Shown here one piece after another: positions 449-46,515 of a stretch of 47,769 nucleotides of DNA. Source of the DNA: a virus. Lineage: Duplodnaviria > Caudoviricetes. The first letter of the stretch is position 1, and the number at the start of each line of letters is the position of its first letter. Both the position numbers and the translations under genes were made by a program. The stretch covers positions 1-47,769 of IMG/VR virus record IMGVR_UViG_3300031673_000090; one strand, 5' to 3'. The notes under the pieces were generated by a model. It was not told the DNA's origin and searched no databases. It saw nothing but the letters and a program-made list of their open reading frames with translations.

Positions 449-2320
449 ATGGGTATGGATTATTTTAATTTGATAAAAGGATCTGATGGTCCGGGGAAGA
501 ACACGGAATTAACTTTTGGCGATTTGTTAAGTGAATGTCGGGAATCCGCTAAAGAAAAAGTAAATGAAGCTGATTACAAAGAAGACAATGACGAGTTGAA
601 TAAGCTAAATAAAGGTAAGAAAAAAGATAAGGGAATGGTGGATGCCGGTGTCAACGGGGAAGAAGACCCCGACAAGGAAGAGGAACTTGAGAATGATATG
701 AAAGATCGCAGTAAGGATCCGGACTCAGACGTACCTCCACCTCCTGATGAAGTTAAAGATAATGACTCACCCATGGAGATGAGAAAAGAGTATCTGGGTA
801 AGTCAGATGAAACTCATTTTTACTTTATTACCACGGAAGGTGGTTCAGGTGATATTGATGATCTTGTAATTGCGGATCAAGATGGTGTAAAGAAGTACTC
901 TGCTAAAGAGCAGGATATTGAGATCTCGGAAGAAAGTATTCCTGATTTTCTTATTGCAGCTATTCGTGATATGATGATTGCTACGATAGAGAGAAGTATC
1001 TTCTTGAAGTATATCTATCCGAAGTTGATTGAGGAAGAGCCTGAAACTGCGGAAGAAGAGTTTGAAGAGGAAGAACTCTCGGAAGAACCTGACATGGAAA
1101 AGGCTCCAGAGGAAGCAAAGCCTCCGAGAGAGTCTGTACTACATGAGGCTGTTGAAGTTGATGAGCAGGAAGTTGATTTAAGTAAACTTGGCGATGATGA
1201 ACTCGTTGCAAAATACGAGGCACTTTTAGTTAAAGGGGGTGCTTCACATGCTGCTGGTCTTGATATGGCTGTTGAGATTAAGAAACGTGGATTAAGTATT
1301 AGCGAATCTAAAGTTCGACTTTTTGAAACGACAGTAGTGGATGATAAGGGAAATTCATTTGATGTGTTCCTCATGGATGATGATCAAGAAGCAACTACCA
1401 TCAGCATTAATGGTTTAGAGCATACTTTTGACCAATACAGTAAGTACTTTCAAGATGATACAGGTAAACTTACCGAGGAGGGATTAAAAGAGCTGGCTCT
1501 TGATACCCTTGCAAATCTTAGCGAAGAGGAATATAATGAGTTAGCTGCCCGGGCGATAGATGCTGAAAGTCAGGAGGGCAAGGTTGATCCGGATGTTGTT
1601 CACGTGCACAATCCACAAAATGAATCTAAAATTGAAGAAAATAATAAGGGGAATGATATGTTAGACGAAAAGAAAACAGTAAATAGCCTACTTGCTTTAG
1701 CACAAAAAGCAGAGAATGAAGCTAAGGCTCTTCGTAAAGAGGCTGAGAACTTAAAGAAAGCAAAAGAAGCGGCAAAGGCGAAAAAGGAATCAGTCGAGTC
1801 TGATATAGTTAAGACAAAGATTGAGGAAACTGATGTCACTAAAGGTACCAAGGCTTTGGTTAAGTTGGCAAAGGATGCCGCAAAGGTTTCTAATTATAAA
1901 GAAGCTGCTGATTACTATACGAAATTGGCTGAGATAGAGTCTATGGTTCCAGCCGAAGCCGCTGATGCAGCCGAGGAACTTCCAGAAGAGACTCCAGATG
2001 AAGCTTTAGAGGATGAGGCTCCAGCAAAGGAAGAAGCCCCAGAAGAAGAAATTGAGGATACACTGGAAGATGACCTCGAAGAGGATGTTATACCTAAGGA
2101 AGATGCAGTTGAGGAGGCTGCCGTCGAGGAGGCTGCCGTCGAGGAAGAAGTTACTGACGAGAAGAAAGCAGTACCTACTTGTAAGAAATGTGGCAAGAAA
2201 CACTGGCCCTTTGAGAAGTGTACTAAGGCGAAGAAAGAAAGCAAAATCGCATTAGAATCTACTGAGGATATTAATGAGACACGGCAGATACAAAGTCTGC
2301 GGAATTTGCTCGATATGTAG
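449..2320 (+). CDS. very acidic putative prohead core / internal head protein with repeated ES-x-V-x-E linkers and C-terminal Zn knuckle
   Basis: 623 aa, E/D-rich, upstream of protease and capsid genes; motifs ESVLHEA, ESKVRLFET, ESKIEE, ESKIALES; CKKCGKKHWPFEKC near C-terminus. Confidence 0.6.
   Translation: MGMDYFNLIKGSDGPGKNTELTFGDLLSECRESAKEKVNEADYKEDNDELNKLNKGKKKDKGMVDAGVNGEEDPDKEEELENDMKDRSKDPDSDVPPPPDEVKDNDSPMEMRKEYLGKSDETHFYFITTEGGSGDIDDLVIADQDGVKKYSAKEQDIEISEESIPDFLIAAIRDMMIATIERSIFLKYIYPKLIEEEPETAEEEFEEEELSEEPDMEKAPEEAKPPRESVLHEAVEVDEQEVDLSKLGDDELVAKYEALLVKGGASHAAGLDMAVEIKKRGLSISESKVRLFETTVVDDKGNSFDVFLMDDDQEATTISINGLEHTFDQYSKYFQDDTGKLTEEGLKELALDTLANLSEEEYNELAARAIDAESQEGKVDPDVVHVHNPQNESKIEENNKGNDMLDEKKTVNSLLALAQKAENEAKALRKEAENLKKAKEAAKAKKESVESDIVKTKIEETDVTKGTKALVKLAKDAAKVSNYKEAADYYTKLAEIESMVPAEAADAAEELPEETPDEALEDEAPAKEEAPEEEIEDTLEDDLEEDVIPKEDAVEEAAVEEAAVEEEVTDEKKAVPTCKKCGKKHWPFEKCTKAKKESKIALESTEDINETRQIQSLRNLLDM
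2111..2145 (+). repeat. 15-bp tandem repeat (gaggaggctgccgtc x2 plus partial) encoding EEAAV
   Basis: seen directly at 2111-2125, 2126-2140 and partial 2141-2145. Confidence 0.9.
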
Positions 2321-2351: not shown

Positions 2352-2492
2352 ACAGGAACAGTTCTGCCGCCAATGGGGCGGTAGGACCCCTGGATCACAA
2401 TGTTAATAGGTTATGTAGTACAGTTATTTGAGTACACCCGTCAAGCCTCTCAAACCTTAGGGTAACTGAAGCTCAAATGTGATGGGTCTTGT
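2352..2492 (+). ncRNA. candidate structured RNA abutting tRNA-Leu
   Basis: nested complementary segments: acagga/tcttgt, hairpin 2361-2387, atcaca/tgtgat, cagtta/taactg, tttgag/ctcaaa. Confidence 0.35.
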
Positions 2493-2566
2493 GGCCCTCT
2501 ATCCCAACTGGCAGAGGAGATGGTCTTAGAAACCATTTAGTGTGGGTTCGACTCCCTCGGGGGCTA
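2493..2566 (+). tRNA. trnL: tRNA-Leu(TAG), short variable loop
   Basis: acceptor GGCCCTC/GGGGGCT, anticodon arm ATGGT-CTTAGAA-ACCAT, T loop TTCGACT; no encoded CCA. Confidence 0.85.
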
Positions 2567-2567
2567 T

Positions 2568-2640
2568 TGCGATATAGACTGGAGTGGCTCCAGCTTGGCC
2601 TCATAAGCCAATGACCTGAGTTCGATTCTCAGTATCGCTA
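2568..2640 (+). tRNA. trnM: tRNA-Met(CAT), initiator-like (1:72 mismatch)
   Basis: acceptor TGCGATA/TATCGCT, anticodon arm TTGGC-CTCATAA-GCCAA, T arm CTGAG-TTCGATT-CTCAG. Confidence 0.85.
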
Positions 2641-2735
2641 TTGGTGCTCAACGAATTCCTATATGGTGACGCCTTGATGCTCAGAGAAATGGCACGGCGT
2701 CCTAAGTGTGTTGAGTTATTTCTCATTTGTTAGAT

Positions 2736-2809
2736 GATCTCATAGCCCAATTGGCAGAGGCGGCAGTTTCAAACACTGCAGGTTGAAGGTTCGAATCCTT
2801 CTGGGATTA
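2736..2809 (+). tRNA. trnL: tRNA-Leu(CAA), short variable loop
   Basis: acceptor GATCTCA/TGGGATT, anticodon arm GCAGT-TTCAAAC-ACTGC, T arm GAAGG-TTCGAAT-CCTTC. Confidence 0.9.
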
Positions 2810-2811
2810 TT

Positions 2812-2883
2812 GCTCGGATAGCTCAACGGTAGAGCACTGGTTTTGTAAACCAGAGGTTGTGGGTTCGAATCCGACTCTGAGCT
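2812..2883 (+). tRNA. trnT: tRNA-Thr(TGT)
   Basis: acceptor GCTCGGA/TCTGAGC, D arm GCTC..GAGC, anticodon arm CTGGT-TTTGTAA-ACCAG, TTCGAAT loop. Confidence 0.92.
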
Positions 2884-3228
2884 TTTGAATGGAGGGAAGA
2901 TGAACGATTTTGATTTTGGAAAAGATGTTGATAACTTGACACGGGAAGAAAGAACCATAGAAGAGTTAATGGAACTTTCTGTCTATGATGAACAGGATAT
3001 AAATAATTGTCCCGATGAATTCTTCCATCAGGAGTATCTATTTACCGCGGGTAGGGATAAGTTTGATTTTATAATGATGTTTATGAAAAATGTGGTTACA
3101 TTCCTATATACATCCCAGTTCACAATGGATATGATATAATGGTGATACGCTTAGTTAAAATAGTATATTCAAAAAGTTGGGCAAATTCAAAAGAAGTGGA
3201 TCAATAGTTGTCTGACTCTGAGCTTTTG
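2873..3228 (+). repeat. 15-bp direct repeat gactctgagcttttg (2873-2887 and 3214-3228): tRNA-Thr 3' end duplicated around a small ORF
   Basis: exact match read from the sequence. Confidence 0.85.
2900..3139 (+). CDS. hypothetical acidic protein inside tRNA cluster
   Basis: ORF track 2885..3139; ATG at 2900 follows GGAGG at 2891-2895. Confidence 0.65.
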   Translation: MNDFDFGKDVDNLTREERTIEELMELSVYDEQDINNCPDEFFHQEYLFTAGRDKFDFIMMFMKNVVTFLYTSQFTMDMI

Positions 3229-3284
3229 GTTTTGTTCTGTTACAGAATAGGGGTAACACTGTCAATGTCCGCAAAACTGGTTAT

Positions 3285-3358
3285 CCAAATGTAGGAAAGT
3301 TTGGTAATCCGCGTGGTTTGGGACCACGAGACCGCTGGTTCGAGTCCAGCCATTCGGA
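3285..3358 (+). tRNA. trnP: tRNA-Pro(TGG)
   Basis: acceptor CCAAATG/CATTCGG (one mismatch), anticodon arm CGTGG-TTTGGGA-CCACG, T arm GCTGG-TTCGAGT-CCAGC. Confidence 0.9.
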
Positions 3359-3434
3359 CTTGTTCTCTGCCAGTGGCAGTAGAATTTAAAAAGGCTTATC
3401 GTTGAGCCCGCCTGGCGAATCAACGGTATGATAC

Positions 3435-3508
3435 GGGCGAGTAGCTCAATTGGGAGAGCGCCTGGTTTGCAACCAGGAGGTTAAGGGTTCGAGGCCCTTC
3501 TCGGTCCA
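3435..3508 (+). tRNA. trnA: tRNA-Ala(TGC)
   Basis: GGGCGAG..CTCG(G)TCCA with G3:U70-type pair and one extra G; anticodon arm CCTGG-TTTGCAA-CCAGG. Confidence 0.88.
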
Positions 3509-3543: not shown

Positions 3544-6500
3544 ATGATATTAAATGAAATGGTGCAGGGTAAACCAATTCTCGAAGAAACCTCAAGAGAG
3601 AAACTTCCAGATGGCGTTTTGTGTAGGGTGTCATATCCTATCTGTGATATTGGTAAACGAAATGCAAATAAGCGAGTTTACGAGGCGGATGTTTGGGAGG
3701 GGGTTCATGCAGATAGTGGCCTTAAAGATAAGCTAGAAAATCGGGCACTCTTTGGTCATGCAGAACATCCTGAACAAACTCAATCTAATCTTGAGAAAAC
3801 CAGCCATGTTATTTTTGAAATGTGGAACGACGGTCAAGATAGAGAGTGGCAGAAGTTTGATGTTCTGGATACCCCCACAGGTCGAATTGTGGATTGCTTA
3901 CTCAGGGCAGGTTGCCGAGTAGGTTGTTCTACCCGAGCAGAGGGTGATCTTGAGGAAGCAGAGGATGACGAGGGTTCTTACCAAAAAGTTGTTGCAGAGA
4001 GTTACAAGTATATAACGACTGATTTTACTGCTGATCCCAGTACCTTCGGATCTGTTCCCCATGATATAAAAAGAAATGTTGTGTCTGAAGTTAAGAAAAT
4101 GTTTGAAACTAAAGATGTTGGCACAGGTGAAATAGAGTTCGCAGAAAAGGTGCTTGAATCCATGACGTGTAAGAAAACTAGAAAAGCTATAGGTAGAAAA
4201 CATAAATGCCAGCATTGTGGTGCCTGTGAAGCTCTTGAGGAGAGAAAAGTTTTGAAAGAAAATAAAACCGTATCAATCTTACTTGAAAATGGTACTATTA
4301 CAGAAGGTGCCACAGTTAAGTATGGTGCAAAAGATGCCAAGGTTGAGAAGATAGAAGAAGGCAATGTGACTTTGTCTGTCGGGGATGTAGAGCGTACTGA
4401 TGTAACAGTTAATGGTAACGCCAATGTCAGTGTTTCTGTAACAGGTGTTATTACTATTCTTCCTGAAGAAGTAATGGCCATTCCAGATGTAGGGCAAGAA
4501 GAGGTTCCTGCAGAATTAGATGTAGAACCCGCAGCAGAGCCCGTAGATGACATTCCTGTTGATGATATGCCTGTTGAGGACGAACTCGAGGCGGAACCTG
4601 AGTTGGATGATATGGATAAGGATGTAGTTCCCGAGAGCAGATTAACAAAAGAAAGTTTAACGGCCGCCTTAGGCAAAGTTGTTAAGATATTGGAAGGTGA
4701 GCATAAAGATAAAGAGGGTAAGCTCACTGAGATCAGTGAAGGAGCAATTGGAATTACTCTGGATGATGGAACGATAGTAAATATTGAGGATCCAACGTCC
4801 ATTAATATTACAGTGACGTCTCCGCCGGAACCTGAACCAGAACTTGAGGAAGAACCCGTTGTTGAACCAGAACTTGAAGATGAGGTTGTTGAACCTCTGG
4901 CTGATGAGGAAATTCCTGAGGCTAAAGAAGAAGGTTGTCCAAAGTGTGGTAACTTAGCAGTTGGACACAATGGACTTTGTCAGAAGTGTCAAGAAGAGGC
5001 GGAACGTCAAGCGAAAAGAGGAAAGAGTGATGCCTATGCCTCTGAATCTGTACTTGATGAAGTAAAAGCGCCTACAGCTTTTGGCGTTAGTGATAAATTG
5101 GATGCCGGAAATTTATTGAAGGATAAGGATGGTAAATCTTGGACGGTTACCGAGGTTACAAATTCTCGTTTACTTATCACTCAGCTGGGTGCACCGGGTA
5201 CTGAAAAATCTCTAAGTTGGGATGAAGTACCGGGTTGGGGTTTTACTAAATTAGCCGAACGGGAATTGGCCAAGGATCCGCATGCTGTGGTTGTTCGTGC
5301 TACAGGTGGTGGTTGGGGAGTTTGGTTAACTGGTGATGGAAAGGATAGATGGTTGGCTGTCTTTTCTGATAAGGATGCTGCAGTTAAACGGGCAGAAAAA
5401 GTTGCCGGTGATGGGGGTATTGATTACACGGGAGTGGAGGAATCTGTACTGGATGAAACAGGTTTTAAATCCGTAGATAGAGACCATTTGAAGAAATTGG
5501 TTAACTGGATGAAGTCTGTTGACCAGAAAAATTATCCCTATGGTAATTTACGCACTGATTTAGAAAAAGCTGAAGAGGCTTTAGAAAATTTAGGAAAATC
5601 TGGTGTAAAGGAATCTGCAGTTGATGAAACCGCGGACATTAATAAAATGTATTCCGATGCTGGTTTACCCACTCCGGATGGTAAAGGTGAGCACACGAAG
5701 GCTTTTCATAAGTTGGCTGTTGGAATTGCCAAGGATTATGTAAAGAGTGGTGATAGTCCTAAAGAAGCTTTGAGCAAGGCATACCCCACTGCTATGAAAC
5801 AACTTGGAAGAGATAAGGCAGTAAAGAAAGCTCATCAGAGAAATGAATCAATCTCCACAACGGTTAAAGAAATCAAGAGTCTAAAACTTCAGGAAGCTGT
5901 AGCAAGATCTGAAAGAGATAAGGCTATTGAATTATTGGAAGACCTTACAAATGGGAAGCAACAGTTTGAATCAAAGGTTGCAAAAGGTAAAGCTCTTGAA
6001 ATTAAGATGCTTGTTTCTCGAATGTCAAAGACTTTAGAAGCCAAAGAGCAGGAAGTAAACGCTCTTAGATTTAAACTTGAGGAAAAGGCTAAACTTGCTG
6101 CGGATCAAAAGAAATTGGTTTCTGAAGCCAGGGCTAATTCGTTAAAAGGAATTACAAGTTTGACAGAAGCGGTTGTCAGTGAAGCAAAAGTGATGAAGGA
6201 CGACTGGGCAAAATCAGACGCAAAGCATGCACAAGAATTGAATCAATTGAGTGAAGCATTAAAAGTAGAGGAGAAAAAGCATAAAGAATCTTGTGAGGTT
6301 TTGAAAGAAAAGATTACAAAAGAAGTTACTGCTGCAATTACTGAGCAGTTTATTAAGCGTTTTGTTGAGTTTAGACTATCCGAATCTAATTTGAAGGTTG
6401 ATGAAAATTCTCGGGCACTTCTCGAGCAAAGTACATCACTGGAAGACGTGGATAATCTTTTGGATGACATCGTAGATGCAAGCAGAAGGAGTGCACTTCA

Positions 6501-6609
6501 CTCTGAGGCAGTAAGGGGCATTCGTGTTCCTCAGCATACTATGCCAGATCCAGAAGGGGATAGGATTAAACGTAGTGTTAATAACATATTTGAAGGTATG
6601 AACGGATAG
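3544..6609 (+). CDS. prohead core protease (T4 gp21-like) fused to accessory modules and C-terminal scaffold-like coiled coil
   Basis: N-terminal ~175 aa has RNANKRVY, GHAEHP, VLDTPTGRIV, GCSTRAEG, DFTADPS motifs of gp21-type proteases; last ~250 aa helical; directly upstream of MCP. Confidence 0.9.
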   Translation: MILNEMVQGKPILEETSREKLPDGVLCRVSYPICDIGKRNANKRVYEADVWEGVHADSGLKDKLENRALFGHAEHPEQTQSNLEKTSHVIFEMWNDGQDREWQKFDVLDTPTGRIVDCLLRAGCRVGCSTRAEGDLEEAEDDEGSYQKVVAESYKYITTDFTADPSTFGSVPHDIKRNVVSEVKKMFETKDVGTGEIEFAEKVLESMTCKKTRKAIGRKHKCQHCGACEALEERKVLKENKTVSILLENGTITEGATVKYGAKDAKVEKIEEGNVTLSVGDVERTDVTVNGNANVSVSVTGVITILPEEVMAIPDVGQEEVPAELDVEPAAEPVDDIPVDDMPVEDELEAEPELDDMDKDVVPESRLTKESLTAALGKVVKILEGEHKDKEGKLTEISEGAIGITLDDGTIVNIEDPTSINITVTSPPEPEPELEEEPVVEPELEDEVVEPLADEEIPEAKEEGCPKCGNLAVGHNGLCQKCQEEAERQAKRGKSDAYASESVLDEVKAPTAFGVSDKLDAGNLLKDKDGKSWTVTEVTNSRLLITQLGAPGTEKSLSWDEVPGWGFTKLAERELAKDPHAVVVRATGGGWGVWLTGDGKDRWLAVFSDKDAAVKRAEKVAGDGGIDYTGVEESVLDETGFKSVDRDHLKKLVNWMKSVDQKNYPYGNLRTDLEKAEEALENLGKSGVKESAVDETADINKMYSDAGLPTPDGKGEHTKAFHKLAVGIAKDYVKSGDSPKEALSKAYPTAMKQLGRDKAVKKAHQRNESISTTVKEIKSLKLQEAVARSERDKAIELLEDLTNGKQQFESKVAKGKALEIKMLVSRMSKTLEAKEQEVNALRFKLEEKAKLAADQKKLVSEARANSLKGITSLTEAVVSEAKVMKDDWAKSDAKHAQELNQLSEALKVEEKKHKESCEVLKEKITKEVTAAITEQFIKRFVEFRLSESNLKVDENSRALLEQSTSLEDVDNLLDDIVDASRRSALHSEAVRGIRVPQHTMPDPEGDRIKRSVNNIFEGMNG

Positions 6610-6628: not shown

Positions 6629-8140
6629 ATGACTGATATGGAATTAGTCCAATCTCAGCTGAACGCTCTACAGGAGCGTCAAGAGGGATTGATGCGCATT
6701 CCTCGTATTAAAAAGTACTTGGGTGTGGTTAATGAACACGTGAAGTCAAATCAAGGTCGGGATATGACGATTTATGAGAAACGTAACGTGGCTCAATGTC
6801 TCTATAATGCTGTGATTGATACCGGCTTAAAGGCCGGAACAAGATTGTTCGAAGCAACAACCGAGGATAACATTGCATTCTTGGGAGTACAGCTTCCGGT
6901 TATCGCGGCACTTTTGCCTTCGTTGGCTCTTAACGAAATCGCAGTTGTGCAGGCAATGGACCGGAGAATTGCTGCTGTGTTCTATCTGGATGTGAAGTAT
7001 GGTTCAACTAAGGGTGGTGTCACTTCTGGCGCAACGATGATGTCGGCAACGACTGGTCACAATGAAGCAACTGCTGGTCGTCGGTACGCAATGGCTCGTG
7101 TAGTTGGCGAGGTATTGACGGATGTCGCTCCAAGTTCTGCAGTGTACACGGGTACCGTAACTTATTCTCCTGGTCTTATCAATTTGGAGAATGTTAAGAT
7201 TTATGATGCCGCGGGTACTTTGTTAGGTTCGGCTGATGAAGATGGCGTTGTTACTGCCGCTTCTGCAACAGGTGTAACCGGCACTATTACCACTGCGGGT
7301 GTGTATAGCCTCGATTTTAGTGGTACAGCTCTTGGTTCAGGTCTAGGCGCAACTATTACTTATGATTATCAGTATGATCTCCCTGTAGATGATAATAATG
7401 AGCGAATTGGTGTGCCTGAGGTTGATGTTAGCGTTCGTCAGGAAACTGTGGAAGCAATTGACTTCCCGCTGAGAGCAAAGTACAGCATCGGTGCACAGAT
7501 TGATTTGATGAAAGCTCATGGGATAAATCTCGAATCCGAACTGGTTAAGTACTTAGGTGGAGAAGTTAAATTCACGATTGATCAGGTGGGACTCGACATG
7601 ATTGATGATGCTGCAGCTGGTACGGGTTCAGCGGATGCAATCACTACCTGGGATGCTCGCCCAAGTCAGGGTGAACCATGGATTTGGAAAAAGGAGGAGT
7701 TGCTTGACCGTTTTGAACAGGGATCAAATAACATCTTTGAGAAGACGAAGAGAGGCGTTGCAACGTTTATCCATTGCGGAAATAACGTAGCACGGATCAT
7801 TCGGCAACTTGATAAGTTCAAAGCACGTGGTGGGGCCACGAATATTCCGACTGGTCCTATGGTAATTGGTACACTTGACGGACGAACAGTTGTACAGAAT
7901 CCGTTCAAGAGTTCCAACTATTACACGATGGGATTTAGAGGACCGAGTTATTTGTATGCAGGCTTTATTTATTGCCCATACATCCCATTGTTCACCACAC
8001 CGACTCTGATTACTTCGGACTTGATGGCTCAGAAAGGCTTTCTTTCGAGTGCAGGTTTCAAGGTGGTCAACGCCGGTCTATTCTGCCAGGGTTTGATTCA
8101 GAACCTGGGTGGTGGATATGTTTTAGGTGTTGATGTGTAA
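6629..8140 (+). CDS. major capsid protein (T4 gp23-like)
   Basis: EIAVVQAM..AAVFYLDVKY, LRAKYSIGAQIDLMKAHGINLESEL, GFIYCPYIPL motifs typical of gp23 family. Confidence 0.95.
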   Translation: MTDMELVQSQLNALQERQEGLMRIPRIKKYLGVVNEHVKSNQGRDMTIYEKRNVAQCLYNAVIDTGLKAGTRLFEATTEDNIAFLGVQLPVIAALLPSLALNEIAVVQAMDRRIAAVFYLDVKYGSTKGGVTSGATMMSATTGHNEATAGRRYAMARVVGEVLTDVAPSSAVYTGTVTYSPGLINLENVKIYDAAGTLLGSADEDGVVTAASATGVTGTITTAGVYSLDFSGTALGSGLGATITYDYQYDLPVDDNNERIGVPEVDVSVRQETVEAIDFPLRAKYSIGAQIDLMKAHGINLESELVKYLGGEVKFTIDQVGLDMIDDAAAGTGSADAITTWDARPSQGEPWIWKKEELLDRFEQGSNNIFEKTKRGVATFIHCGNNVARIIRQLDKFKARGGATNIPTGPMVIGTLDGRTVVQNPFKSSNYYTMGFRGPSYLYAGFIYCPYIPLFTTPTLITSDLMAQKGFLSSAGFKVVNAGLFCQGLIQNLGGGYVLGVDV

Positions 8141-10131: not shown

Positions 10132-11208
10132 ATGAAAAAGAATCAAATACGGCTCTTGGAAAGTATGATTGAAATACCCTCACCTTCAGGATACGAAGAA
10201 GAGATAGCGGAATTTATTAAGAACAGATTGTTACAATTTTTGCCAAAGTCTAAAGTTTCAGTAGATTTTCAAAATAACGTATGTGCAGTCATCGAAGGCA
10301 CTTCCAATAAGGTAGTGATGATTGATGCCCATTTAGATCAAGTGGGTTTTGTAGTTACCAATGTTGATAGAAAAGGTTTTATCAGTCTAGTGTACGTCGG
10401 TGGAGGGGACTTATCCATACTAAGTGCAAGAGACTTGGTTATTCTTACGAGTAAAGGACCTGTTAATGCTGTAGTGAATCGAAAACACGCCCACCTAGTA
10501 GAGGACGAAGGTGATGCCAATGTTAATAGTATGATTCAGGCCATAGTTGATATCGGTCCTCGTAGTCGAAATAAGGTATTATCAATAGTAAAGGTGGGTG
10601 ATCCTGTTGTATACAAACCATCATTTTCTCATCTAAGAGAAAGTTTTTATGCCGGTCCTGGTATGGATGATAAGACAGGTTGTTTTGTACTGTTGGAAAC
10701 AATGAGGGCGGTAGCAAAGTCTAAAAAGAAATCTATGCCAACATTGGTTTTTACCTTTTCTGGTCAAGAGGAAGTCTACGGACGCAAACTTCGACCATTG
10801 ATTAAAAAGTATAATCCGGATTTATTTATTGAGGTTGATGTAACCTTTGCTACGGATTGGGAAGATGATGCCGATTTGCAAAGAGAGGTGGGTCTGTGTG
10901 AGTTATGTTCAGGCCCAGTTATTTACCGTGGAGTCGACATTGATAAAGCTTGTTTTAAGCTGATCAGTTCCGTAGCAAGAACTCATAAGATAAAAACACA
11001 AATACAAGCATCAGCGGGATCAATTGGATACACTGCCACAGAGGTGACCAATGAAGGAAAAGGAATCAAAGCCCTAATACTGGGTATTCCATTGAGAAAC
11101 ATGCACACACCTGTGGAGGTTATAAGTATGCGAGACCTCGCGTATACCACCCAACTATTAAAAGAATTCCTATTACACCGGAATATCGGAAAGGTTTTGG
11201 AGAGATAA
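10132..11208 (+). CDS. M42 family (TET-type) metallo-aminopeptidase
   Basis: PSPSGYE, DAHLDQVG, MDDKTG, QEEVYG, EVDVT, RNMHTPVE metal-binding motifs all present. Confidence 0.92.
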   Translation: MKKNQIRLLESMIEIPSPSGYEEEIAEFIKNRLLQFLPKSKVSVDFQNNVCAVIEGTSNKVVMIDAHLDQVGFVVTNVDRKGFISLVYVGGGDLSILSARDLVILTSKGPVNAVVNRKHAHLVEDEGDANVNSMIQAIVDIGPRSRNKVLSIVKVGDPVVYKPSFSHLRESFYAGPGMDDKTGCFVLLETMRAVAKSKKKSMPTLVFTFSGQEEVYGRKLRPLIKKYNPDLFIEVDVTFATDWEDDADLQREVGLCELCSGPVIYRGVDIDKACFKLISSVARTHKIKTQIQASAGSIGYTATEVTNEGKGIKALILGIPLRNMHTPVEVISMRDLAYTTQLLKEFLLHRNIGKVLER

Positions 11209-11778: not shown

Positions 11779-12825
11779 ATGCTGGATTTATTTGAAAAAT
11801 TAATTGAAGCTTCTGCTTCTGATATACGAAGAAAGCAAAAGTCTATAAAAAGACTCTTTCCGGACTTTGACGCTAAAACAAAGGGCGTCGAGGACAAAGG
11901 TGGGTTAAAATTAGTTAATCAAAGTGCAAATAGGTGGACATTTAAGATACATTCAGGTACTGATGATAGTCTCTGGTATGATGCCTATCTGAATTTTAAG
12001 GAAGTAAAATCAACACTTGAGCGAATGGTAAAAGATAGAAGACTTTGGGTTTCAGATAAATCTAGGGTTGACTTGCGGAAGTTAGCAAAGCAATTTATGG
12101 ATAAGGTGGATATCCAATTATTCTGCTCCTGCAAAGCATTTCAGTATTGGGGTCCTGCCCATATACTTAGTCTTGACAAATATGATGCGATGGCGGGTGG
12201 TCGGAAAGAGGTTCGTCCACCAAAAGAGCGAAATCCCAAAAAATATGGCATGTTATGCAAGCATTTAGATCGGTTGCTAAAGGTACTTCCGTTTTATTCA
12301 GGTACTGCAGCTCGGTGGATTAATGATTTTTATGCCGAGGATATTAAGAAGTGGGAACAAGAAGCACGAGAAACATTTGGTTGGGCAAAGGCAGTAGGTA
12401 AAGCTTTGGGAAAGAGACGGGAAGAAAAGCCTATCACACCACCTCCAGTTGAACCAGAACCCAAACCAGAATTAGAAGTAGAGCCCGAAGTAGAACCTGA
12501 GGTAGTTCCAAAAGAAGAACCCACTCGGGAACCTAAAGCGGCAAAAATTTCAACTGAGGAACCGGGGATAGCAAAAGGACCACCTCGGGAACCTGGAGTA
12601 TCAAAGAAGAAAGTTAAAGAACCTGGGATAGCAAAGTCAGAACCCGTGGAACCTGGGTTGGCAAAAGAAAAGCCCATTGAAAAGCCCAAAGAGGAGCCAG
12701 AAGAAGAGGAGCCAGAAGAGGAACCCAAAAAGACTGGGAAGACTCCTGGAGGTAAGAAGGACAAGAAAAAGAAACCTGAGTGGAAACCAGATGCTGGAGA
12801 AGGTCCTGAGGAGGATTACTTTTAA
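11779..12825 (+). CDS. SWIM-type zinc-finger protein with P/E/K-rich repeat tail; putative internal head protein
   Basis: CSCKAFQYWG...LCKHL (CxC..CxH); EPG[IVL][AS]K x4; leader MLDLFEKLIE. Confidence 0.75.
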   Translation: MLDLFEKLIEASASDIRRKQKSIKRLFPDFDAKTKGVEDKGGLKLVNQSANRWTFKIHSGTDDSLWYDAYLNFKEVKSTLERMVKDRRLWVSDKSRVDLRKLAKQFMDKVDIQLFCSCKAFQYWGPAHILSLDKYDAMAGGRKEVRPPKERNPKKYGMLCKHLDRLLKVLPFYSGTAARWINDFYAEDIKKWEQEARETFGWAKAVGKALGKRREEKPITPPPVEPEPKPELEVEPEVEPEVVPKEEPTREPKAAKISTEEPGIAKGPPREPGVSKKKVKEPGIAKSEPVEPGLAKEKPIEKPKEEPEEEEPEEEPKKTGKTPGGKKDKKKKPEWKPDAGEGPEEDYF

Positions 12826-13070
12826 TGTTTGACGAACTACTTGAAGATGTTAAAATTTCTGATTTAAATGAAAAGCTTATTGAAAAGCTTGCCGCTCTTG
12901 AGCACGATCAGTGGGCTCATTGGACGAAGTACATGCTGGCTAACATGACTGATGAGAATATAGCCAGATGGAAAGAGCAAATAGATACCCCTTATTCTGA
13001 ACTATCAGAAAAAGAAAAAGACAGTGATAGAGAGTGGGCTCAAAAAGTTTTGGATATAATTGAGGAATAA
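12825..13070 (+). CDS. small RyR-repeat-like protein
   Basis: KLAALEHDQW...PYSELSEKEKDSDR matches the RyR domain pattern (LAxxxHxxW..PYxxLxxxEKxxDR). Confidence 0.6.
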   Translation: MFDELLEDVKISDLNEKLIEKLAALEHDQWAHWTKYMLANMTDENIARWKEQIDTPYSELSEKEKDSDREWAQKVLDIIEE

Positions 13071-14022: not shown

Positions 14023-14481
14023 ATGAATAATACATTGAAGAAAATACGTGAAGCAAAAGATGTTTGTATTTATCAAAAATTACTTAAGGCTTTAGGAACT
14101 TATTCGGCGGATATTCCTGCTACTGGTATTGATGGCTTGTTTGATGCTGTAGCAAAGGGTGGTACAAAGATACTACCCAAGGATAAGAAAGCATTGGAAA
14201 TTCTCTATCACGTACTGGAAAGTGGACTTGCCGCCCGAATTGTACACAAGCTACTAAACTTGAGATTTTCTGACTTGCCTGCTGAATTCAGGCCCATGAT
14301 GAAGAACGGACGAAAAACTCAAGTGGCTCATTGGTCAAGAGACTCGAAAATAAGTGACAGGATTAAGGATTTAGTGAATTGGGACGGTACAGGTAAGGTT
14401 GGCGGTTGGACTGACATTGACGGTGAAAAAGTTACGCTTATCCCCATACTGAAAAAAGAGGAGAAATCACATGCTGTTTAA
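14023..14481 (+). CDS. hypothetical protein; putative internal head protein
   Basis: GAGGA RBS; leader MNNTLKKIRE-A. Confidence 0.65.
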   Translation: MNNTLKKIREAKDVCIYQKLLKALGTYSADIPATGIDGLFDAVAKGGTKILPKDKKALEILYHVLESGLAARIVHKLLNLRFSDLPAEFRPMMKNGRKTQVAHWSRDSKISDRIKDLVNWDGTGKVGGWTDIDGEKVTLIPILKKEEKSHAV

Positions 14482-17236
14482 TGATGAAAATTCAGATGTT
14501 TTAGATTTATTGGCAAAGATGCAAGAGGCCACAACTTCTGAGGTTGATGAAGAGAGGGGCACTTTTAAGAAGGGTGATAAAGTCACATACAACATGTTTG
14601 GAGGAAGTCTCTCCAACGATGATTTTGTTAGAACACTCGGTGTACATGAGCATGCAATAAGAGTCCGTCACGATGGAGCTATTGCAGAAATCGTAGAGGC
14701 TATGGGTGAAGAAGTAGCTCGGTACAGCATACAATTTACTGATGGTTTCATTATTAATGACGTTGCTGTCAGTGAAGTTAAGGCCATAACTGAAGCAGAG
14801 GATGCCACCCAGACTATGAAACCCCAGGAGAAACCTGCTCTTGATGCTGAAGATGCCAATATGGAGGATTACAGCGAAGAGGACCTTAACAAGCCAGAAG
14901 CTAAAATTAAAAGCAAGTCTGAAAAATCTGGGGATGCCATTAGGGGTGTTGAGGATAAGGAACTTGAGCAGAAAGAAGATAAGGTAGAAAAGCCTAAGAA
15001 TGAATCTAAAGTTGATGAATCTGTTCAAACAGATATAAAACGATATAAGGATCAACTTGAACGTAAAGCTAAAAAATCTGGTCTTTGGGAGAACTTTGGT
15101 CAAAAACAAGTTGGGTTACTGGAGGATAAGTATTCAGATCATCAATATAAACATGATGGTATTTGGGATGCTATTCGAGTTTTTGATAAATGGTGCCAGT
15201 CTTATACTGGGAAGAATGAATCTAAGGTTGAAGAAGCGGAACGCAAGGATCATATCCCCGGTGGACAAGGTGATAAGAAAGTTGCTTCAGATTTTAATGC
15301 CGAGCAAGTTAAGATTGGTACTAAAATTGAGATGGAACACACTGATGACCCAGTTATTGCTGGCGAAATAGTGTTGGATCACTTGAAGGAAGATCCTGAG
15401 TATTACACAAAGTTAGTACGAATGGAAGCCGGTGCCTGTGACACGCCTAAGAAAGAATCCAAAGTAGCAGAAGGTGAAATGGAAGTGGCTCCTTCTAAAG
15501 TGGGGATAAAGAAAATCTCTGATGAAAACTTGAAAAAATTACACGATGGTTCTATGCGTTCATGGAATCAGTGGAAAGATTCCACACAGCCTGAGAACGG
15601 AAAATTGGCTGCTCAGGCAATTAAGCAATATGAAGATGAAATGATAGTCCGAGGACTCAAGTCAGAGGATCAAAGGACCACTGGTAAATTTATGGCTGAG
15701 TCAGCTCTGTTTACCTTATTGAAGAAACAAGAACCCCTTCGGTTATGTAATGAATGCTTTAAGACTTTCCGAAGTACCGGAAGTTGCTGTGAGTTTTGTG
15801 CCAGTCCAGATACAGAATCTTTGGTAGAAGGATACGGAGATCTCGTGGGTTCCGCTAAAGAAGTATTTCAAGTTACCTGGGATGATGCTAAAACTGGAAA
15901 AGAGGAGTCAACAAGGGTGATGGCCTTTGATAAAGACGATGCCAAGCGAGAAATGGAAAGGAACCCCAACAAGAAGGTTACCAAAGTTGAAGGTCCAATT
16001 GTTTCCAAGTCTAAAGATGAATCTGCTGTATCAGAAGATTATACTGAAGTACATCCTGGAAAATATTTGGTAATGTACTACGATGGATATAAGGAAGAGA
16101 TATCTGCTCAATCAAAAGTTGATGCTATGAAAAAGGGTCGGGAAAACTACCCGGAAAAAAGAATTTCTAACGTGAGGTTATTAGAACAGGAAAATAAATC
16201 CCCTTTTGATCATACTTCGGAAGGATCCGAACTCCAAGAAGCTGTTTTAGAACTTGTTGGAGAAACGCCTGGTATTGACATTGAAGATCAGAAAATTTTG
16301 AGATGGGCTCTTGAGCAGAATGCTATATCAAATGAATGGCCTTCAGTGGAACAGATGATTGATGTTGTAACTGAGTTGGATGTTATAGATACTTCCGGTG
16401 CAGATGATCCGGATGGATTGGATCTTGGAGAAATCGAAGCAGTTTATCTCAAGTATGTTTTACTTCCGAAGGCAACTGCAGCTTTTGCAAAATCAGTAAG
16501 CGAATCAGAAGTAACTGAGATGGCACAGGAGGGGATTCCAGTAGCTGGTAAAACGTACCATATCACTCAAACAACTGGATGGCATTGGCCAGAAGGAGAT
16601 TATAAAGTTACTGATGTTCAATATCTTCGGTGTGCTCGTGGTGATTTAGCCAAGCAATTTCAGGTTGAGGGTAATGATAATTGGTGGATAGCCACATTCT
16701 ATCACTTTAAGGAAGCTGATGGAGTTAAGGAAGCTCAGAAGGAAGTTAAACCTTTTAGGACGATAGAGATTGTCAAAAGTAAAATAGATCCAGACGTTTT
16801 TAATATTCGTGTGGTGGAGTTACCACGAGGTATTACTATGATTGTGACCACTGAACCAACTGATAAAATGGCTATAGCAAAGGGTAAGGAAATTGCAAAC
16901 CTTATAAATGCAAAATTCTTGGGGATTGTTGACGAAGCTAAACTCAAGGAGCGGGAAGAAGGGAAACTTCCTTCAAAGTTAATTACTAAATTAACATCCT
17001 TTGCAAAAGAACATGGTATGACACTTGCAGAACTTGGAGAGGTCCCCGCCGAAGAGCTTGATAAGAAAACTGATGAATCCAAAGTTACCGAGCAGGAAGA
17101 AGATACTTTTACAACCGTGGGCAAGGGCATGGAAAAGGAAGACGCGGAGAAACTTGCTCAGGAAAAAGATGGTCAAGTTGTGACCGATGAGGATAATCCA
17201 GAGAAATTTGCCGTGATTACAAAAGGGAAACCATAA
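14471..17236 (+). CDS. 921-aa multi-module protein (includes DUF5661-like module); putative protease-processed polyprotein
   Basis: GTKIEMEH..IVLDHLKEDPEYYTKL (DUF5661-like); repeated ES-x-V-x-E linkers separating small domains. Confidence 0.75.
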   Translation: MLFNDENSDVLDLLAKMQEATTSEVDEERGTFKKGDKVTYNMFGGSLSNDDFVRTLGVHEHAIRVRHDGAIAEIVEAMGEEVARYSIQFTDGFIINDVAVSEVKAITEAEDATQTMKPQEKPALDAEDANMEDYSEEDLNKPEAKIKSKSEKSGDAIRGVEDKELEQKEDKVEKPKNESKVDESVQTDIKRYKDQLERKAKKSGLWENFGQKQVGLLEDKYSDHQYKHDGIWDAIRVFDKWCQSYTGKNESKVEEAERKDHIPGGQGDKKVASDFNAEQVKIGTKIEMEHTDDPVIAGEIVLDHLKEDPEYYTKLVRMEAGACDTPKKESKVAEGEMEVAPSKVGIKKISDENLKKLHDGSMRSWNQWKDSTQPENGKLAAQAIKQYEDEMIVRGLKSEDQRTTGKFMAESALFTLLKKQEPLRLCNECFKTFRSTGSCCEFCASPDTESLVEGYGDLVGSAKEVFQVTWDDAKTGKEESTRVMAFDKDDAKREMERNPNKKVTKVEGPIVSKSKDESAVSEDYTEVHPGKYLVMYYDGYKEEISAQSKVDAMKKGRENYPEKRISNVRLLEQENKSPFDHTSEGSELQEAVLELVGETPGIDIEDQKILRWALEQNAISNEWPSVEQMIDVVTELDVIDTSGADDPDGLDLGEIEAVYLKYVLLPKATAAFAKSVSESEVTEMAQEGIPVAGKTYHITQTTGWHWPEGDYKVTDVQYLRCARGDLAKQFQVEGNDNWWIATFYHFKEADGVKEAQKEVKPFRTIEIVKSKIDPDVFNIRVVELPRGITMIVTTEPTDKMAIAKGKEIANLINAKFLGIVDEAKLKEREEGKLPSKLITKLTSFAKEHGMTLAELGEVPAEELDKKTDESKVTEQEEDTFTTVGKGMEKEDAEKLAQEKDGQVVTDEDNPEKFAVITKGKP

Positions 17237-17643
17237 TGCGTGACATATATGAGAAACTGACTGAGGAAGACGGAGCTTCACCTGAGGACGTTGCTAGTAT
17301 GGACGTAGACCTAGAGCTTCATGTTGATGGCTTGGGCGACGGAGAGGCAGTGTCCGAGCCAGAAAGGGTATCCCTAACCTATCGTATCGAGGTGGAATGG
17401 CGAAGTTGGGGCATTAAGGATATAAATGTAACTCCAATAGGTGAAGTTGAGTTTGAAGTTGAGATAGTTGATGACGTTAATGGTAATTTAATAGATACTA
17501 TTAATGTCAACTTTGATATGGGCGATGTTAAGATACACTGGGTGCAAGGACACAGCTACGTTCCTGAGTCTTTTATGGTTAGAGTAGATAGATCAGGGAA
17601 GTTATTGGAAGCGGAACTTAATTTCTATTTTCAGAGTCAATAA
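17236..17643 (+). CDS. acidic beta-rich hypothetical protein; putative internal head protein
   Basis: TAATG-coupled ORF; leader MRDIYEKLTE. Confidence 0.7.
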   Translation: MRDIYEKLTEEDGASPEDVASMDVDLELHVDGLGDGEAVSEPERVSLTYRIEVEWRSWGIKDINVTPIGEVEFEVEIVDDVNGNLIDTINVNFDMGDVKIHWVQGHSYVPESFMVRVDRSGKLLEAELNFYFQSQ

Positions 17644-18308
17644 TGGAAGAACTACTTGAAAAATTAATGGCAGAAGGTTGGGGTCAACATGTAGCCACTG
17701 CCGCCGCGGCAGGTATTATTGGTGGCGCTGCTGTTTTGGGTGGTGCCTATAAAGCGGAGAAAGAAAGACCCGTTGAACCATCTCCTTCTACGGTCAGGGC
17801 AGAAGAACCCAAGGTAGAAGAACCCAGGGTAGAAGAACCTAATGAACCCGCTGCTAAAAAAGAAATAGTTAGGATGTTAGTAACTGCGTACTGTCCTTGT
17901 GCAAAATGCTGTGGTACGGGTTCACCAGGTATAACCGCCAATGGCCATAAAATACAATCCGGGGATACTTTTGTGGCCGCAGATAAAAGGTATGCATTTG
18001 GTACTGAGATGGTTATTCCAGGATACAATAAGGGTCAATCTGTGGAAGTTCTTGATAGGGGTGGAGCTATAAAAGGGAATCATATTGATGTGTTCTTTCC
18101 CACCCACCAAGAAGCCCTGAATTGGGGTGTCCAAAATTTGGATGTTGAGATTCTTAGAGGGGTTACAGAAGCTCGGGGTCATTGGAGAAATTGGGAAGAA
18201 ATACAATGCCTTAAATGTTTTTGGAGAGATTATAAAAAGAATTTTGCCAAGAGAAAAGAATCTATTCCAAAGATATGTCCTAAATGTGGTGCTGAGTTAA
18301 AGACTTGA
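17643..18308 (+). CDS. 3D-domain (MltA-like) peptidoglycan hydrolase with C-terminal Zn ribbon
   Basis: VTAYCPC..GITANG..VAAD..DRGGAIKGNHIDVF; CLKC..CPKCG at C-terminus. Confidence 0.9.
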   Translation: MEELLEKLMAEGWGQHVATAAAAGIIGGAAVLGGAYKAEKERPVEPSPSTVRAEEPKVEEPRVEEPNEPAAKKEIVRMLVTAYCPCAKCCGTGSPGITANGHKIQSGDTFVAADKRYAFGTEMVIPGYNKGQSVEVLDRGGAIKGNHIDVFFPTHQEALNWGVQNLDVEILRGVTEARGHWRNWEEIQCLKCFWRDYKKNFAKRKESIPKICPKCGAELKT

Positions 18309-19303
18309 GACTGAGAAATATGATTGATAAACTATATGAAAATGCATTCGCTGTGGATATGCAATTATTCTCCACCAGATTGACCAAGGAATCTTTGGAT
18401 AGGAGTACGTTTGAATCCTTGATAGACTTTGCTCAGTCCGGTTTAGATCCAGATGTATGGGTTCAAGATGGTAAAGGTGTGTACTCTCTTGTTCCAGGTG
18501 TTGAAGAAAAAATTATAGGATTCATAAAAAAGTATCCCGGCGGAGACCTTTTATCATTAACAGACAATGTACACGTGGTTGGTTCCATAACTACAAATCA
18601 ATATTTGGAGGATTCTGATCTTGACGTTCATATTTTTCTGAAGGATATTAGCAAGTGGAATGAAGATATCGTTTGGGAAGTTAAAGGATGGTTTGATAGG
18701 AATGCAAAATTATCCAGTGCTCTTGTAGGTGAACATACAATTGAAATATATATTCAATTACGTCCGTCTGTGGATTATCTATCACCGGGATTTTATGACT
18801 TAACAAATCATAAATGGATAAAAGGTCCGAAGATTGTGGCGGAAGATTATGATCCGTATGCTGATTTTTCTGACATTGCAGATGATTTAAGAAGTTCTGT
18901 AAAAGATACAGATTTGATTATTGGCGAACTTAAAAGAGATGTTATTGATTTTGAAACAATTCAAAAGGCGGTAGGTAAAATGTCGCCAGAGAATAAAAAG
19001 AAGTTTCTTACCAAGCTGGAATCTAAATTGGAGGATATAGAGTCCTCAATTAGGACCTTATTGAAACATAAAGATCAGTGGGTAGCCAATCGGCGTTTAG
19101 TGGATGAGCCGACCTCGCCTGAACAAGCTTTGAAGGATGTCGATTTGGCAAAACAATGGCGAGATTCCAATGCAGTGTTTAAGCTGATTGGCCGGTACAA
19201 GTACGTAACCCTCATTAAGGACCTAAAAAAGCTTTTGCAGGATGATGGTAAAGTGACTCCAGACGAAATAGATAAAGTTAAAGATATCATAGGGACAAAA
19301 TAA
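18305..19303 (+). CDS. DNA polymerase beta-superfamily nucleotidyltransferase with helical C-terminal domain
   Basis: hhGS-x(9)-SDLDVH (VVGSITTNQYLEDSDLDVHI) and third acidic residue in IEIYIQ; start may be TTG 18305 or ATG 18320. Confidence 0.8.
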   Translation: MRLRNMIDKLYENAFAVDMQLFSTRLTKESLDRSTFESLIDFAQSGLDPDVWVQDGKGVYSLVPGVEEKIIGFIKKYPGGDLLSLTDNVHVVGSITTNQYLEDSDLDVHIFLKDISKWNEDIVWEVKGWFDRNAKLSSALVGEHTIEIYIQLRPSVDYLSPGFYDLTNHKWIKGPKIVAEDYDPYADFSDIADDLRSSVKDTDLIIGELKRDVIDFETIQKAVGKMSPENKKKFLTKLESKLEDIESSIRTLLKHKDQWVANRRLVDEPTSPEQALKDVDLAKQWRDSNAVFKLIGRYKYVTLIKDLKKLLQDDGKVTPDEIDKVKDIIGTK

Positions 19304-40689: not shown

Positions 40690-41775
40690 ATGGGAAGTGT
40701 GAATCATGGTACCCAGGATATAAGTTGGAATTTTTATGAAGAATTGACATCGAGGGATTTCAATGAACGTAATATGAATATTCAACCAAGAGGTATATAC
40801 AAGGGTGGCTATTTGACTAGAGTTTCTGACGCTGAGGTCTCCTTATCTCCCCTTACCGCGGAGATAGGTGATACTGTTATTCAAGTATCCATAAGTACCG
40901 CTGTCGCGGCCACACTCAATGTCAGTACGTTAGATTCGGGAAGTATATCCTCAGCTACTCCTGTTTTGGTGCTTCGATGGGCATACACCGCTTCGGCCGC
41001 CAATTATATGGAAATTCATGCGATTGCCTCTGCTGCCGTTGCTTTATCTAATGACATTATTATCGGCAAATGTAACTTTAGTGGGGCAACTCTGGTTGAC
41101 TTTGACTACGCGAATAGAACTTTTCTTACTATACAAGATCTGTTCTTAAAGGTGGAAAGTAGCAGCGGTCTTTACGTACAACTGCGGGCTGGTAGAATTC
41201 AAACCGCCACGGGTTACGTACAAATTCCGGAAACATTGGTAGGACCGTTCTCGGTACCGGGATCTCCTAATTCTAGAATCGATCTTATTTATATTGATAC
41301 CGATGGGACAGTATCAATAGCAGCAGGAGCTGCAGCTCCTAGCCCATCTGCACCTAGTTATGCAAGAAGATTGGTAGTTGCTGAAATTAGGATAGCAAAT
41401 GGGGATACCACCATCCCGGCTAGTCGAATTACTGATGTCCGATCTTTTATAAGTAAGAATTTTGATATGTCTCCGGTTACTTATGTAGGCGGAGAAAGTG
41501 TGACTCATGCTAACGGTTTGATAGAAAAAATGGGTAAAACCGCTACGCCGGTAGGCAATCTCGCATACAATGGTACTGTAACGGTTACCTTTGCAACACC
41601 TTTTCCAAATGGTATTAAGTCAGTAGTCGGGAATATGAAAAATACAGCAGGATACGGGGCAGTTGTTGAGATTTATTCTGCAACTGTAAACGCCGTGGTG
41701 TTTAGATATACTGAGTCCGATATAGGGATATACGAAGCTTGTGATGGAATTTACTGGATGGCAAAAGGTTGGTAA
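40690..41775 (+). CDS. tail fibre protein 2 (paralogue of fibre 1)
   Basis: shares QDLFLKVE, RAGRI, NSRIDL with previous ORF; NGLIEKMG..VTFATPFPN..YWMAKGW tail-fibre C-terminal domain. Confidence 0.75.
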   Translation: MGSVNHGTQDISWNFYEELTSRDFNERNMNIQPRGIYKGGYLTRVSDAEVSLSPLTAEIGDTVIQVSISTAVAATLNVSTLDSGSISSATPVLVLRWAYTASAANYMEIHAIASAAVALSNDIIIGKCNFSGATLVDFDYANRTFLTIQDLFLKVESSSGLYVQLRAGRIQTATGYVQIPETLVGPFSVPGSPNSRIDLIYIDTDGTVSIAAGAAAPSPSAPSYARRLVVAEIRIANGDTTIPASRITDVRSFISKNFDMSPVTYVGGESVTHANGLIEKMGKTATPVGNLAYNGTVTVTFATPFPNGIKSVVGNMKNTAGYGAVVEIYSATVNAVVFRYTESDIGIYEACDGIYWMAKGW

Positions 41776-41780
41776 CCAAT

Positions 41781-42539: not shown

Positions 42540-42557
42540 GTATAATTATAACATAAG

Positions 42558-42758
42558 GTAGACTGACGGCTTGAATGTTTTAGAGAGTTAATGTAAGCTC
42601 CGATTCTGTGATGGAAGAGGACGAAGGACTGCACTGGGTTCGAGTCCTGGAACTTTCTGTTCAGTTTACTAATTATGATGTGGATAATATTAATAGGGCG
42701 GTGGCGACCGATAAGGAATGTAGGGAAAGCACAAAGCCATCATGCCCGCCCTATTAAT
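42558..42758 (+). ncRNA. candidate structured RNA(s) in 240-bp intergenic region
   Basis: GTAGACTGA/TCAGTTTAC, AGGACT/AGTCCT, T-loop-like GGTTCGAGTCC, and a perfect 13-bp inverted repeat 42689-42701/42746-42758. Confidence 0.4.
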
Positions 42759-42783
42759 TTATCAAGAGAGAAGGTGGAGAACA

Positions 42784-44838: not shown

Positions 44839-44843
44839 TTAAC

Positions 44844-46507: not shown

Positions 46508-46515
46508 GGATAGGT

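Follow-up and report, generated by a model that had tools for sequence, protein, structure and literature searches.

We have found that a gene located at 14471..17236 of the virus record IMGVR_UViG_3300031673_000090 (47,769 nt, analyzed in its entirety and called here the window) codes for a 921-amino acid (aa) protein built of 13 small modules, many of them ending in variants of one short peptide, the tag E-S-K-[VLIT]-x-E. In this virus and its relatives the tags are concentrated in three head genes, modules are exchanged among these genes, and the inside of the modules avoids, family-wide, the motif [LI]-x-E. It is rather likely, in our opinion, that this is a head polyprotein of swappable modules, targeted by its leader and cut by the S77 (gp21-type) prohead protease, whose modules are injected. 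The N-terminal leader would dock the chain in the prohead core, and the protease would cut after the last Glu of each tag. About a dozen modules of 5-10 kDa would then be released and retained in the head, to enter the host with the DNA and act there, most plausibly, against host defences. New modules would be gained by recombination at the tag-coding DNA, inheriting packaging and release with no leader of their own. Loading through the leader followed by cutting is, judging by the sequences, probable; survival of the modules in the head we would favour by a lesser degree; and ejection with a counter-defence role, proposed because of the analogy with the internal proteins of phage T4 and of the rapid turnover of module content, is tentative and falls short of an even chance.

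The boundaries of the modules were drawn from the gaps of an AlphaFold model and from homology breakpoints. The features are listed below (residues in brackets after each name, fractions giving the presence among the 64 members of the family described later).

14471..17236, plus strand: 921-aa modular polyprotein gene, AGGAG ribosome site upstream
14471..14527, plus strand: N-terminal leader (1-19), predicted helix 8-20, end K-M-Q-E (homologues mostly K-I/L-Q-E)
14552..14794, plus strand: module A (28-108), SH3/KOW/Tudor-like barrel, candidate cut after E108; 22/64
14795..15019, plus strand: module B (109-183), acidic, predicted disordered, conserved core, end ESKVDE (15002); 51/64
15020..15235, plus strand: module C (184-255), helical, end ESKVEE (15218), also found as separate 68-73-aa proteins
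15236..15472, plus strand: module D (256-334), DUF5661, end ESKVAE (15455), position variable among relatives
15473..15700, plus strand: module E (335-410), helical hairpin of lower confidence, junction to the Zn ribbon without the full motif; 11/64
15701..15829, plus strand: Zn ribbon (411-453), CxxC...CxxC, conserved core, end ESLVE (15815); 52/64
15830..16036, plus strand: module G (454-522), predicted beta-beta-alpha-beta, end ESAVSE (16019)
16037..16240, plus strand: module H (523-590), predicted beta-beta-alpha-beta plus connector, candidate cut after E590
16241..16519, plus strand: module I (591-683), acidic four-helix domain, conserved core, end ESEVTE (16502); 44/64
16520..16732, plus strand: module J (684-754), Trp-rich beta domain, candidate cut after E754
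16733..16951, plus strand: module K (755-827), three strands, helix, strand, end EAKLKE (16934)
16952..17092, plus strand: module M (828-874), short, helical, only in the 921-aa protein, end ESKVTE (17075)
17093..17233, plus strand: module N (875-921), small alpha/beta C-terminal domain, conserved core; 46/64

A preliminary description of this DNA had named eight linkers, all of them present at the positions bracketed in the list, and about ten modules. This last number was too low, because further junctions are found at E108, E410, E590 and E754; the 13 modules (12 predicted folded and B disordered) have 43-93 residues each, for predicted products of 4.8-10.1 kDa. The pattern E-S-x-[VLI]-x-E occurs six times in the protein against 0.16 expected, a value unreached in 1000 shuffles. 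Over the 47 ORFs (open reading frames) counted in the window it appears 12 times: 6 in the polyprotein, 3 in the protease, 2 in the product of 449..2320 and 1 elsewhere. The bare [VLI]-x-E is mildly raised in the 921-aa protein (29 vs 21.0, P=0.033). The AlphaFold model, run on a 46-sequence alignment, had a mean pLDDT (predicted local distance difference test) of 76 and a pTM (predicted template modelling score) of 0.31, with confident islands split by stretches under 50 (109-179, 251-256, 325-349, 404-419, 453-460, 513-525, 574-588, 679-687, 752-759 and 862-877). The independent domains with disordered linkers that had been anticipated are predicted by the model at seven of the eight named linkers, which these gaps cover or directly adjoin, and not at EAKLKE, which is predicted helical.

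Several of the proposed folds are supported too. Module A is SH3/KOW/Tudor-like (best Z 7.3, root-mean-square deviation 2.4, 62 residues aligned, none at Z 8) and module D is a DUF5661 domain (Pfam 2.5e-12; PF18905 at 47.4 and 52.2 bits for a cut-off of 27). The four cysteines of the Zn ribbon are invariant in 26 aligned sequences. Modules G and H, described before as two similar beta-beta-alpha modules, are alike in their predicted topology and gave no mutual BLAST alignment.

The protein itself was found in a single record by a metagenome locus search, L024, 100% identical over residues 1-921; the single-protein locus search gave nothing in viral_contigs or genome_contigs. Relatives are abundant. 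A phmmer search of 1.84 billion representatives (E 0.001) gave 5512 hits, and the family was drawn from the best 150 of these 5512. Proteins with at least two core modules, translations from the loci and the query made an initial set of 68, from which four proteins of the 449-2320 slot were dropped, leaving 64 members of 144-1267 aa, some of them fragments. A hit to P0042 (2513 aa) was discarded as a spurious repeat match. Across the 64 members ES[KR][VLIT]xE was found 152 times against 1.5 expected; at least one tag is present in 50 members and at least three in 26, and the number of sites follows the length of the protein (rho 0.81). Short gaps between tags are rare in the set of 68, with 4 of 148 below 40 aa (33 expected), and the commonest gap is 55-70 aa. 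Clustering of the 116 segments that hold a single module gave 56 groups, of which 39 are singletons (these seed clusters still include segments from the four dropped proteins).

The strings of modules were all distinct in the 48 members of at least 450 aa, and 45 pairs of modules were seen in both orders. As had been predicted, the linkers are kept in other phages and the order of the modules is not; full-length collinear homologues devoid of conserved linkers did not appear. Free-standing versions had also been predicted, and short separate proteins exist for module C and for module D (many of 80-114 aa); a search of shorter proteins found none for G to N. The slot of the gene is fixed in the related phages, between the homologues of 14023-14481 and 18305-19303 and immediately upstream of the nucleotidyltransferase homologue, while the gene itself goes from 255 to 1267 aa (loci listed and G001-G003). 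The Zn ribbon, B, N and I form a core kept in 52, 51, 46 and 44 of the 64 members, and because of this core part of the polyprotein may have a conserved assembly role rather than being variable payload.

The window is the structural arm of a T4-like myophage, with protease and capsid genes followed by tail sheath, tube and baseplate genes, and the polyprotein gene is placed among small ORFs between the capsid and tail genes. Four other genes matter for the argument:

3544..6609, plus strand: S77 (gp21-type) prohead protease gene, Pfam PF03420 2e-7 (above cut-off), PHROG 207 4e-29
6629..8140, plus strand: gp23-type major capsid protein, candidate maturation site L-F-E75
449..2320, plus strand: acidic 623-aa protein, upstream of the protease, with two linker copies and a module in common with a polyprotein relative
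17236..17643, plus strand: stand-alone leader-bearing ORF, its body a fused C-terminal module in related polyproteins

The protease gene product has 1021 aa (621 to 1168 aa among relatives) and consists of the S77 domain, a modular middle (three tags, a KOW hit and a Zn-ribbon-like stretch) and a tail with densely packed [LI]-x-E, resembling a fused scaffold. Its assignment to S77 rests on Pfam and PHROGs, since the protease domain had no match among PDB sequences. The H, S and D motifs, which we take to be the catalytic triad, are conserved in 9/9 relatives, and this protease is likely the processing enzyme of the polyprotein. In the capsid protein a hydrophobic-x-E before [AT]TTED is conserved in 8/8, with L or I at P3 (the first position of the motif) in 7/8. 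L-F-E75 aligns near residue 81 of the T4 protein, in a segment that is non-significant, and is for this reason taken as a candidate only.

The leader of the polyprotein likely acts as a capsid-targeting propeptide. The preliminary description had proposed a targeting leader, and the one present resembles those of the neighbouring small head-region ORFs, scoring 8.8 bits at E19 with a profile built from 14 leaders out of 50 stand-alone head-region ORFs. At 8 bits or more this profile recovered 22/61 polyprotein N-termini, 0/122 non-head ORFs and 0/18 tail proteins; the training leaders were chosen with a pattern of our own, which makes the result supporting rather than independent. Besides, the end of the leader and the tag have K-hydrophobic-x-E in common.

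The gp21 protease of T4 cuts after L/I-X-E and removes targeting propeptides of 10-19 residues from the internal proteins (PMC9026906), and the distribution of [LI]-x-E was strongly biased in the proteins analyzed here. The C-terminal 230 residues of nine protease proteins (23-47% identical), to which we would assign a scaffold role, held 111 such motifs against 47.0 expected (2.36x), and the capsid N-termini 24 against 8.0 (2.98x). The rest of the capsid protein (14 vs 15.4, 0.91x) and the non-head proteins (299 vs 280, 1.07x) were close to expectation. Inside 56 representative modules the motif was depleted (22 vs 46.0, 0.48x, z -4.1), and a second set of 58 module families gave 0.53x. No drop was found in the modules when K, R, Q, D, S or A replaced E, nor with other spacings. 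Helical periodicity was rejected as the cause of the scaffold enrichment, as K, R, Q and D are not raised there and a helical tail family reached 1.33x; the 1.9x enrichment of the catalytic domain is partly non-specific ([LIV]-x-D 1.64x). This enrichment in the parts expected to be destroyed, and the halving of the motif in modules family-wide, are what modules that are cut out and survive would show. They also suggest, tentatively and with a chance slightly under even, a two-tier proteolytic code of the head in a clade of T4-like phages, in which dense [LI]-x-E would shred the scaffold and the E-S-K-[VLIT]-x-E tag would excise intact payload. Any small gene that recombined between two tags, within the protease gene too, would then be packaged and injected, and these genes would form a plug-in library of dozens of counter-defence proteins.

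The same data bear on another possibility, that the polyprotein is a prohead core or filler protein like gp67 and gp68 of T4, loaded, cut at the tags and cleared, with the modules as tolerated passengers. The tag and the modules are indeed shared with the protease-scaffold protein and with the acidic protein that precedes it, the acidic disordered B belongs to the conserved core, and in T4 the core proteins are cleaved to numerous fragments, most of which exit from the head (PMC9026906). Nevertheless, a protein meant to be cleared fits poorly with [LI]-x-E raised 2.4-3.0x in parts expected to be destroyed and falling to 0.48x in modules, with sites at domain-length spacing and with modules that are predicted to be folded and so diverse (56 clusters in 116 segments). 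We regard it as unlikely, though it is the best placed of the alternatives to the injected polyprotein.

What the modules do was approached by domain and fold comparison. The scans of the 921-aa protein with Pfam, PHROGs and NCBIfam found no enzymatic or known anti-defence signature, and those of 60 related proteins with Pfam gave chiefly DUF5661, KOW and Zn-ribbon hits. In the fold comparisons that bear on a match to solved anti-defence proteins the best Z was 7.3 for the whole model (SH3/KOW) and 4.0 for module I, the other modules being barely covered. Nothing in BFVD, among PDB folds or among PDB sequences matched module I; Acb4, at Z 2.9, was considered noise, and a link to HD-domain clusters in the Atlas (147 shared features at a score of 0.91, with 21% of the members carrying HD) was rejected, as module I is without His. 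The Atlas search with module C gave no result, and a Foldseek comparison with BFVD yielded nothing informative for the whole model. One relative, P0062, carries at residues 501-594 a 2H phosphoesterase (PF13563 above cut-off; the Acb1 model at E 0.0034, below cut-off), which is possibly a cargo that degrades cyclic nucleotides. It also carries modules D and N and the module of the ORF starting at 17236; it is a distant relative and has no strict tag. Neither a prophage nor a firm host could be identified, and the hints were limited to a 'Firmicutes bacterium' source label (fragment P0009) and weak Atlas neighbours.

These results could also be accommodated if the cut modules remained in the head, acting there in DNA packing, ejection or capsid stability, or idle, and were no effectors in the host. 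The want of enzymatic or known anti-defence signatures in the 921-aa protein agrees with it, and the conserved Zn-B-I-N core suits housekeeping. Yet the extreme turnover of content (48/48 distinct strings) fits better with host-driven selection, all three internal proteins of T4 (Ip1-3), which are injected, inhibit restriction enzymes, each a different GmrSD enzyme (PMC12373910), and a leader-bearing neighbour, described below, has a 3D peptidoglycan-hydrolase domain that makes sense only outside the head. A role confined to the head appears to us a shade less probable than the filler protein, and injection of the modules is still the preferred reading.

The modules do not stay within the polyprotein gene. 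Module I is found directly after a tag within the S77 protease P0048 (53% identity, E 5e-29), so that modules can be covalently part of a core protein. A module of the 449-2320 protein recurs in polyprotein P0005 (E 8e-11), six relatives of the 449-2320 protein carry D, G, H or I, and the ORF 17236-17643 corresponds to a C-terminal module of P0059, P0062, P0099 and L023. The tags are concentrated in the same genes: 11 of 15 in three head genes of G002 (102,811 bp, direct terminal repeats, 122 ORFs), 9 of 11 in three head genes of G001 and 8 of 11 in two of these in G003, where one gene carries 6.

The tags mark out the units that are exchanged, and module limits tend to coincide with them. A [LIVT]-x-E lies within -14..+3 of 340/390 module starts, against 425/1950 windows of the same size inside modules. 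Module-size insertions or deletions in 13 hand-picked pairs had a strict tag at one end in 26/50 cases (22% by chance). Local alignments started within 8 residues of the last Glu of a tag in 26.5% of cases and ended there in 16.6% (random 9.5%), a comparison that is partly circular since shared tags attract alignment ends. The 42 tags of 19 genes are coded by 41 distinct 18-mers that use both serine codon families, which indicates that the peptide is the conserved unit, and a pure DNA-repeat origin was rejected. Copying at the DNA level occurs as well, because the codons are skewed (TCC 36% vs 8%, CTC 29% vs 5%, AAA 83% vs 58%) and the tags of the same gene are more alike than expected (25/36 codons vs 17.1); the DNA coding for the tags could serve as recombination points. 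An uncut polyvalent protein, with the tag as flexible spacer or as a DNA microhomology scar of module shuffling, would suit this copying and the departure of V/T at P3 from the T4 rule, and is the least probable alternative, given the conserved peptide, the invariant terminal Glu, the match of K-[hydrophobic]-x-E to the leader end and the capsid site, and an avoidance of internal [LI]-x-E that a spacer leaves unexplained.

Several observations weigh against a polyprotein cut at its tags into injected counter-defence modules. The site bias is a family trait: the folded spans of the 921-aa protein itself are not depleted in [LI]-x-E (8 vs 7.1), the 13 commonest module families gave a non-significant 0.74 (z -0.9), and in module A the motif reaches 2.0x the expectation. 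The linkers had been described as ending in the gp21-type hydrophobic-x-E site; the residue at P3 is hydrophobic as stated, and it is V in 7/8 named linkers (EAKLKE has L), which falls outside the L/I-X-E rule given for T4 gp21 (PMC9026906). Over 233 ES-x-x-x-E the P3 residue was V in 72, L in 63, T in 32 and I in 23. V and T had no signal elsewhere (VxE 1.27x in scaffold and 0.80x in modules, TxE neutral). With V/T at P3 in most linkers, the tag would need the E-S-K context to be a good site, and either this prefix broadens the tolerance of the protease or some tags stay uncut. EAKLKE is predicted to be within a helix (822-829) and not in a loop, the junction between E and the Zn ribbon is without the final Glu in homologues, and the short members (255-328 aa, B-Zn-I) have no strict tag. 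Searching shorter proteins with residues 450-921 gave 5 hits in 5024 candidates, all of them fragments or short family members. Regarding function, none of the modules matches a known anti-defence family, the sole enzyme seen, the 2H phosphoesterase, belongs to a distant relative that has no strict tag, and the predicted products are mostly neutral or acidic, while T4 internal proteins contact DNA through lysines (PMC3012670).

Other genes of the region deserve mention. Immediately after the stand-alone ORF, 17643-18308 codes for a candidate cell-wall enzyme packaged in the head, with a leader, a hydrophobic stretch of Ala/Gly and a 3D domain (PF06725). Next to it, 18305-19303 is a leader-bearing nucleotidyltransferase (PF01909); in most of the related loci seen it lies beside the polyprotein gene or close to it. 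Upstream, 12825-13070 is an 81-aa stand-alone RyR-domain ORF (PF02026 above cut-off) with a leader-like start and homologues in L003 and G002. The preceding gene, 11779-12825, codes for a Cys/His-motif protein (PHROG 4315) with a Pro/Glu/Lys tail; its homologues are longer and reach 721 aa (G002) and 1087 aa (G003), and this family is perhaps a fourth module carrier. An M42 aminopeptidase lies at 10132-11208 in the head region, and its G002 homologue in the replication arm. Six tRNA genes (Leu x2, Met, Thr, Pro, Ala) are found at 2492-3507, between the 449-2320 gene and the protease gene. The capsid gene appears as two ORFs in L001 (3844-5660) and as three in L008/G001 (L008 181-3313), possibly owing to introns or frameshifts. 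Scattered over the head region of G003 and G001 (L035 1587-5020; L042 142-645 and 14390-15202) are families of small paralogous ORFs whose leader-like starts are almost identical, with weak leucine-rich repeat hits in some. After the tail-fibre genes, at 41769-47694, there are ORFs that by eye resemble glycosyl- and methyltransferases. A promoter scan stayed at chance level.

If this interpretation is true, tailed phages can inject many small proteins at the onset of infection by means of a polyprotein with one leader. The tags would give exact boundaries, and the clade would offer 56-58 module families that could be cloned and screened for inhibition of bacterial immunity. Head cargo could be recognized by computation in any phage genome, from protease sites that are biased in opposite directions in disposable and in retained parts. 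The system bears also on how gp21-type proteases select their sites despite so short a motif, an open question in PMC9026906.

Our literature search, mainly of open-access papers, found no head polyprotein cut by a prohead protease into many cargo modules. The closest system is that of T4 IPI, IPII, IPIII and Alt, which has in common with this one the gp23-type capsid and gp21-type protease (PMC9026906, PMC3012670, PMC12373910, PMC9391042), a short N-terminal propeptide (here a likely one) with a hydrophobic-x-Glu end and a repertoire variable among related phages. The predicted products of 43-93 residues are comparable to IPI*, an ejected inhibitor with a compact fold of 76 residues (PMC3012670). 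The leader has 19 residues and ends in M-Q-E, where T4 propeptides have 10-19 and end in L/I-X-E, a likeness by description only. In the T4 internal proteins one gene has one leader and gives one product, Alt being trimmed at both ends; here a single leader precedes 13 modules with an extended six-residue internal tag, and modules are also found within the protease and the gene preceding it. With the T4 core proteins gp22, gp67 and gp68 (PMC9026906, PMC7411985) the polyprotein shares acidity, many Glu-type sites and the location in the head-gene region. Its sites, however, are not dispersed but confined to domain boundaries (0.48-0.53x in modules vs 2.36x in the protease tail, family-wide, the 921-aa protein itself being neutral).

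The polyvalent proteins of phages and conjugative elements (Iyer et al. 2017) are similar in having many unrelated domains per chain, shuffled and near virion genes, and their 2-15 disparate domains near late or virion genes (PMC5512222) are also seen here. For them processing and injection have been proposed; they are mostly enzymatic, often MuF-fused, and with an own zincin peptidase proposed (PMC5512222). The modules here are, in contrast, small and mostly non-enzymatic, and the repeated tag points to a separate S77 protease; the Pfam, PHROGs and NCBIfam scans of the 921-aa protein found no zincin, MuF or catalogued effector domain, and it has no HExxH. The gp21-like proteases phiKZ gp175 and SPN3US gp245 also cut after Glu (PMC9026906, PMC7411985, PMC5694885), at S/A-X-E or A-X-E, and the ejection proteins of these phages have multi-site propeptides whose extra sites serve to clear the propeptide, with no chain of separate mature domains described in the available parts of these papers. 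The polyprotein likely works like the internal proteins of T4, from which it differs in architecture.

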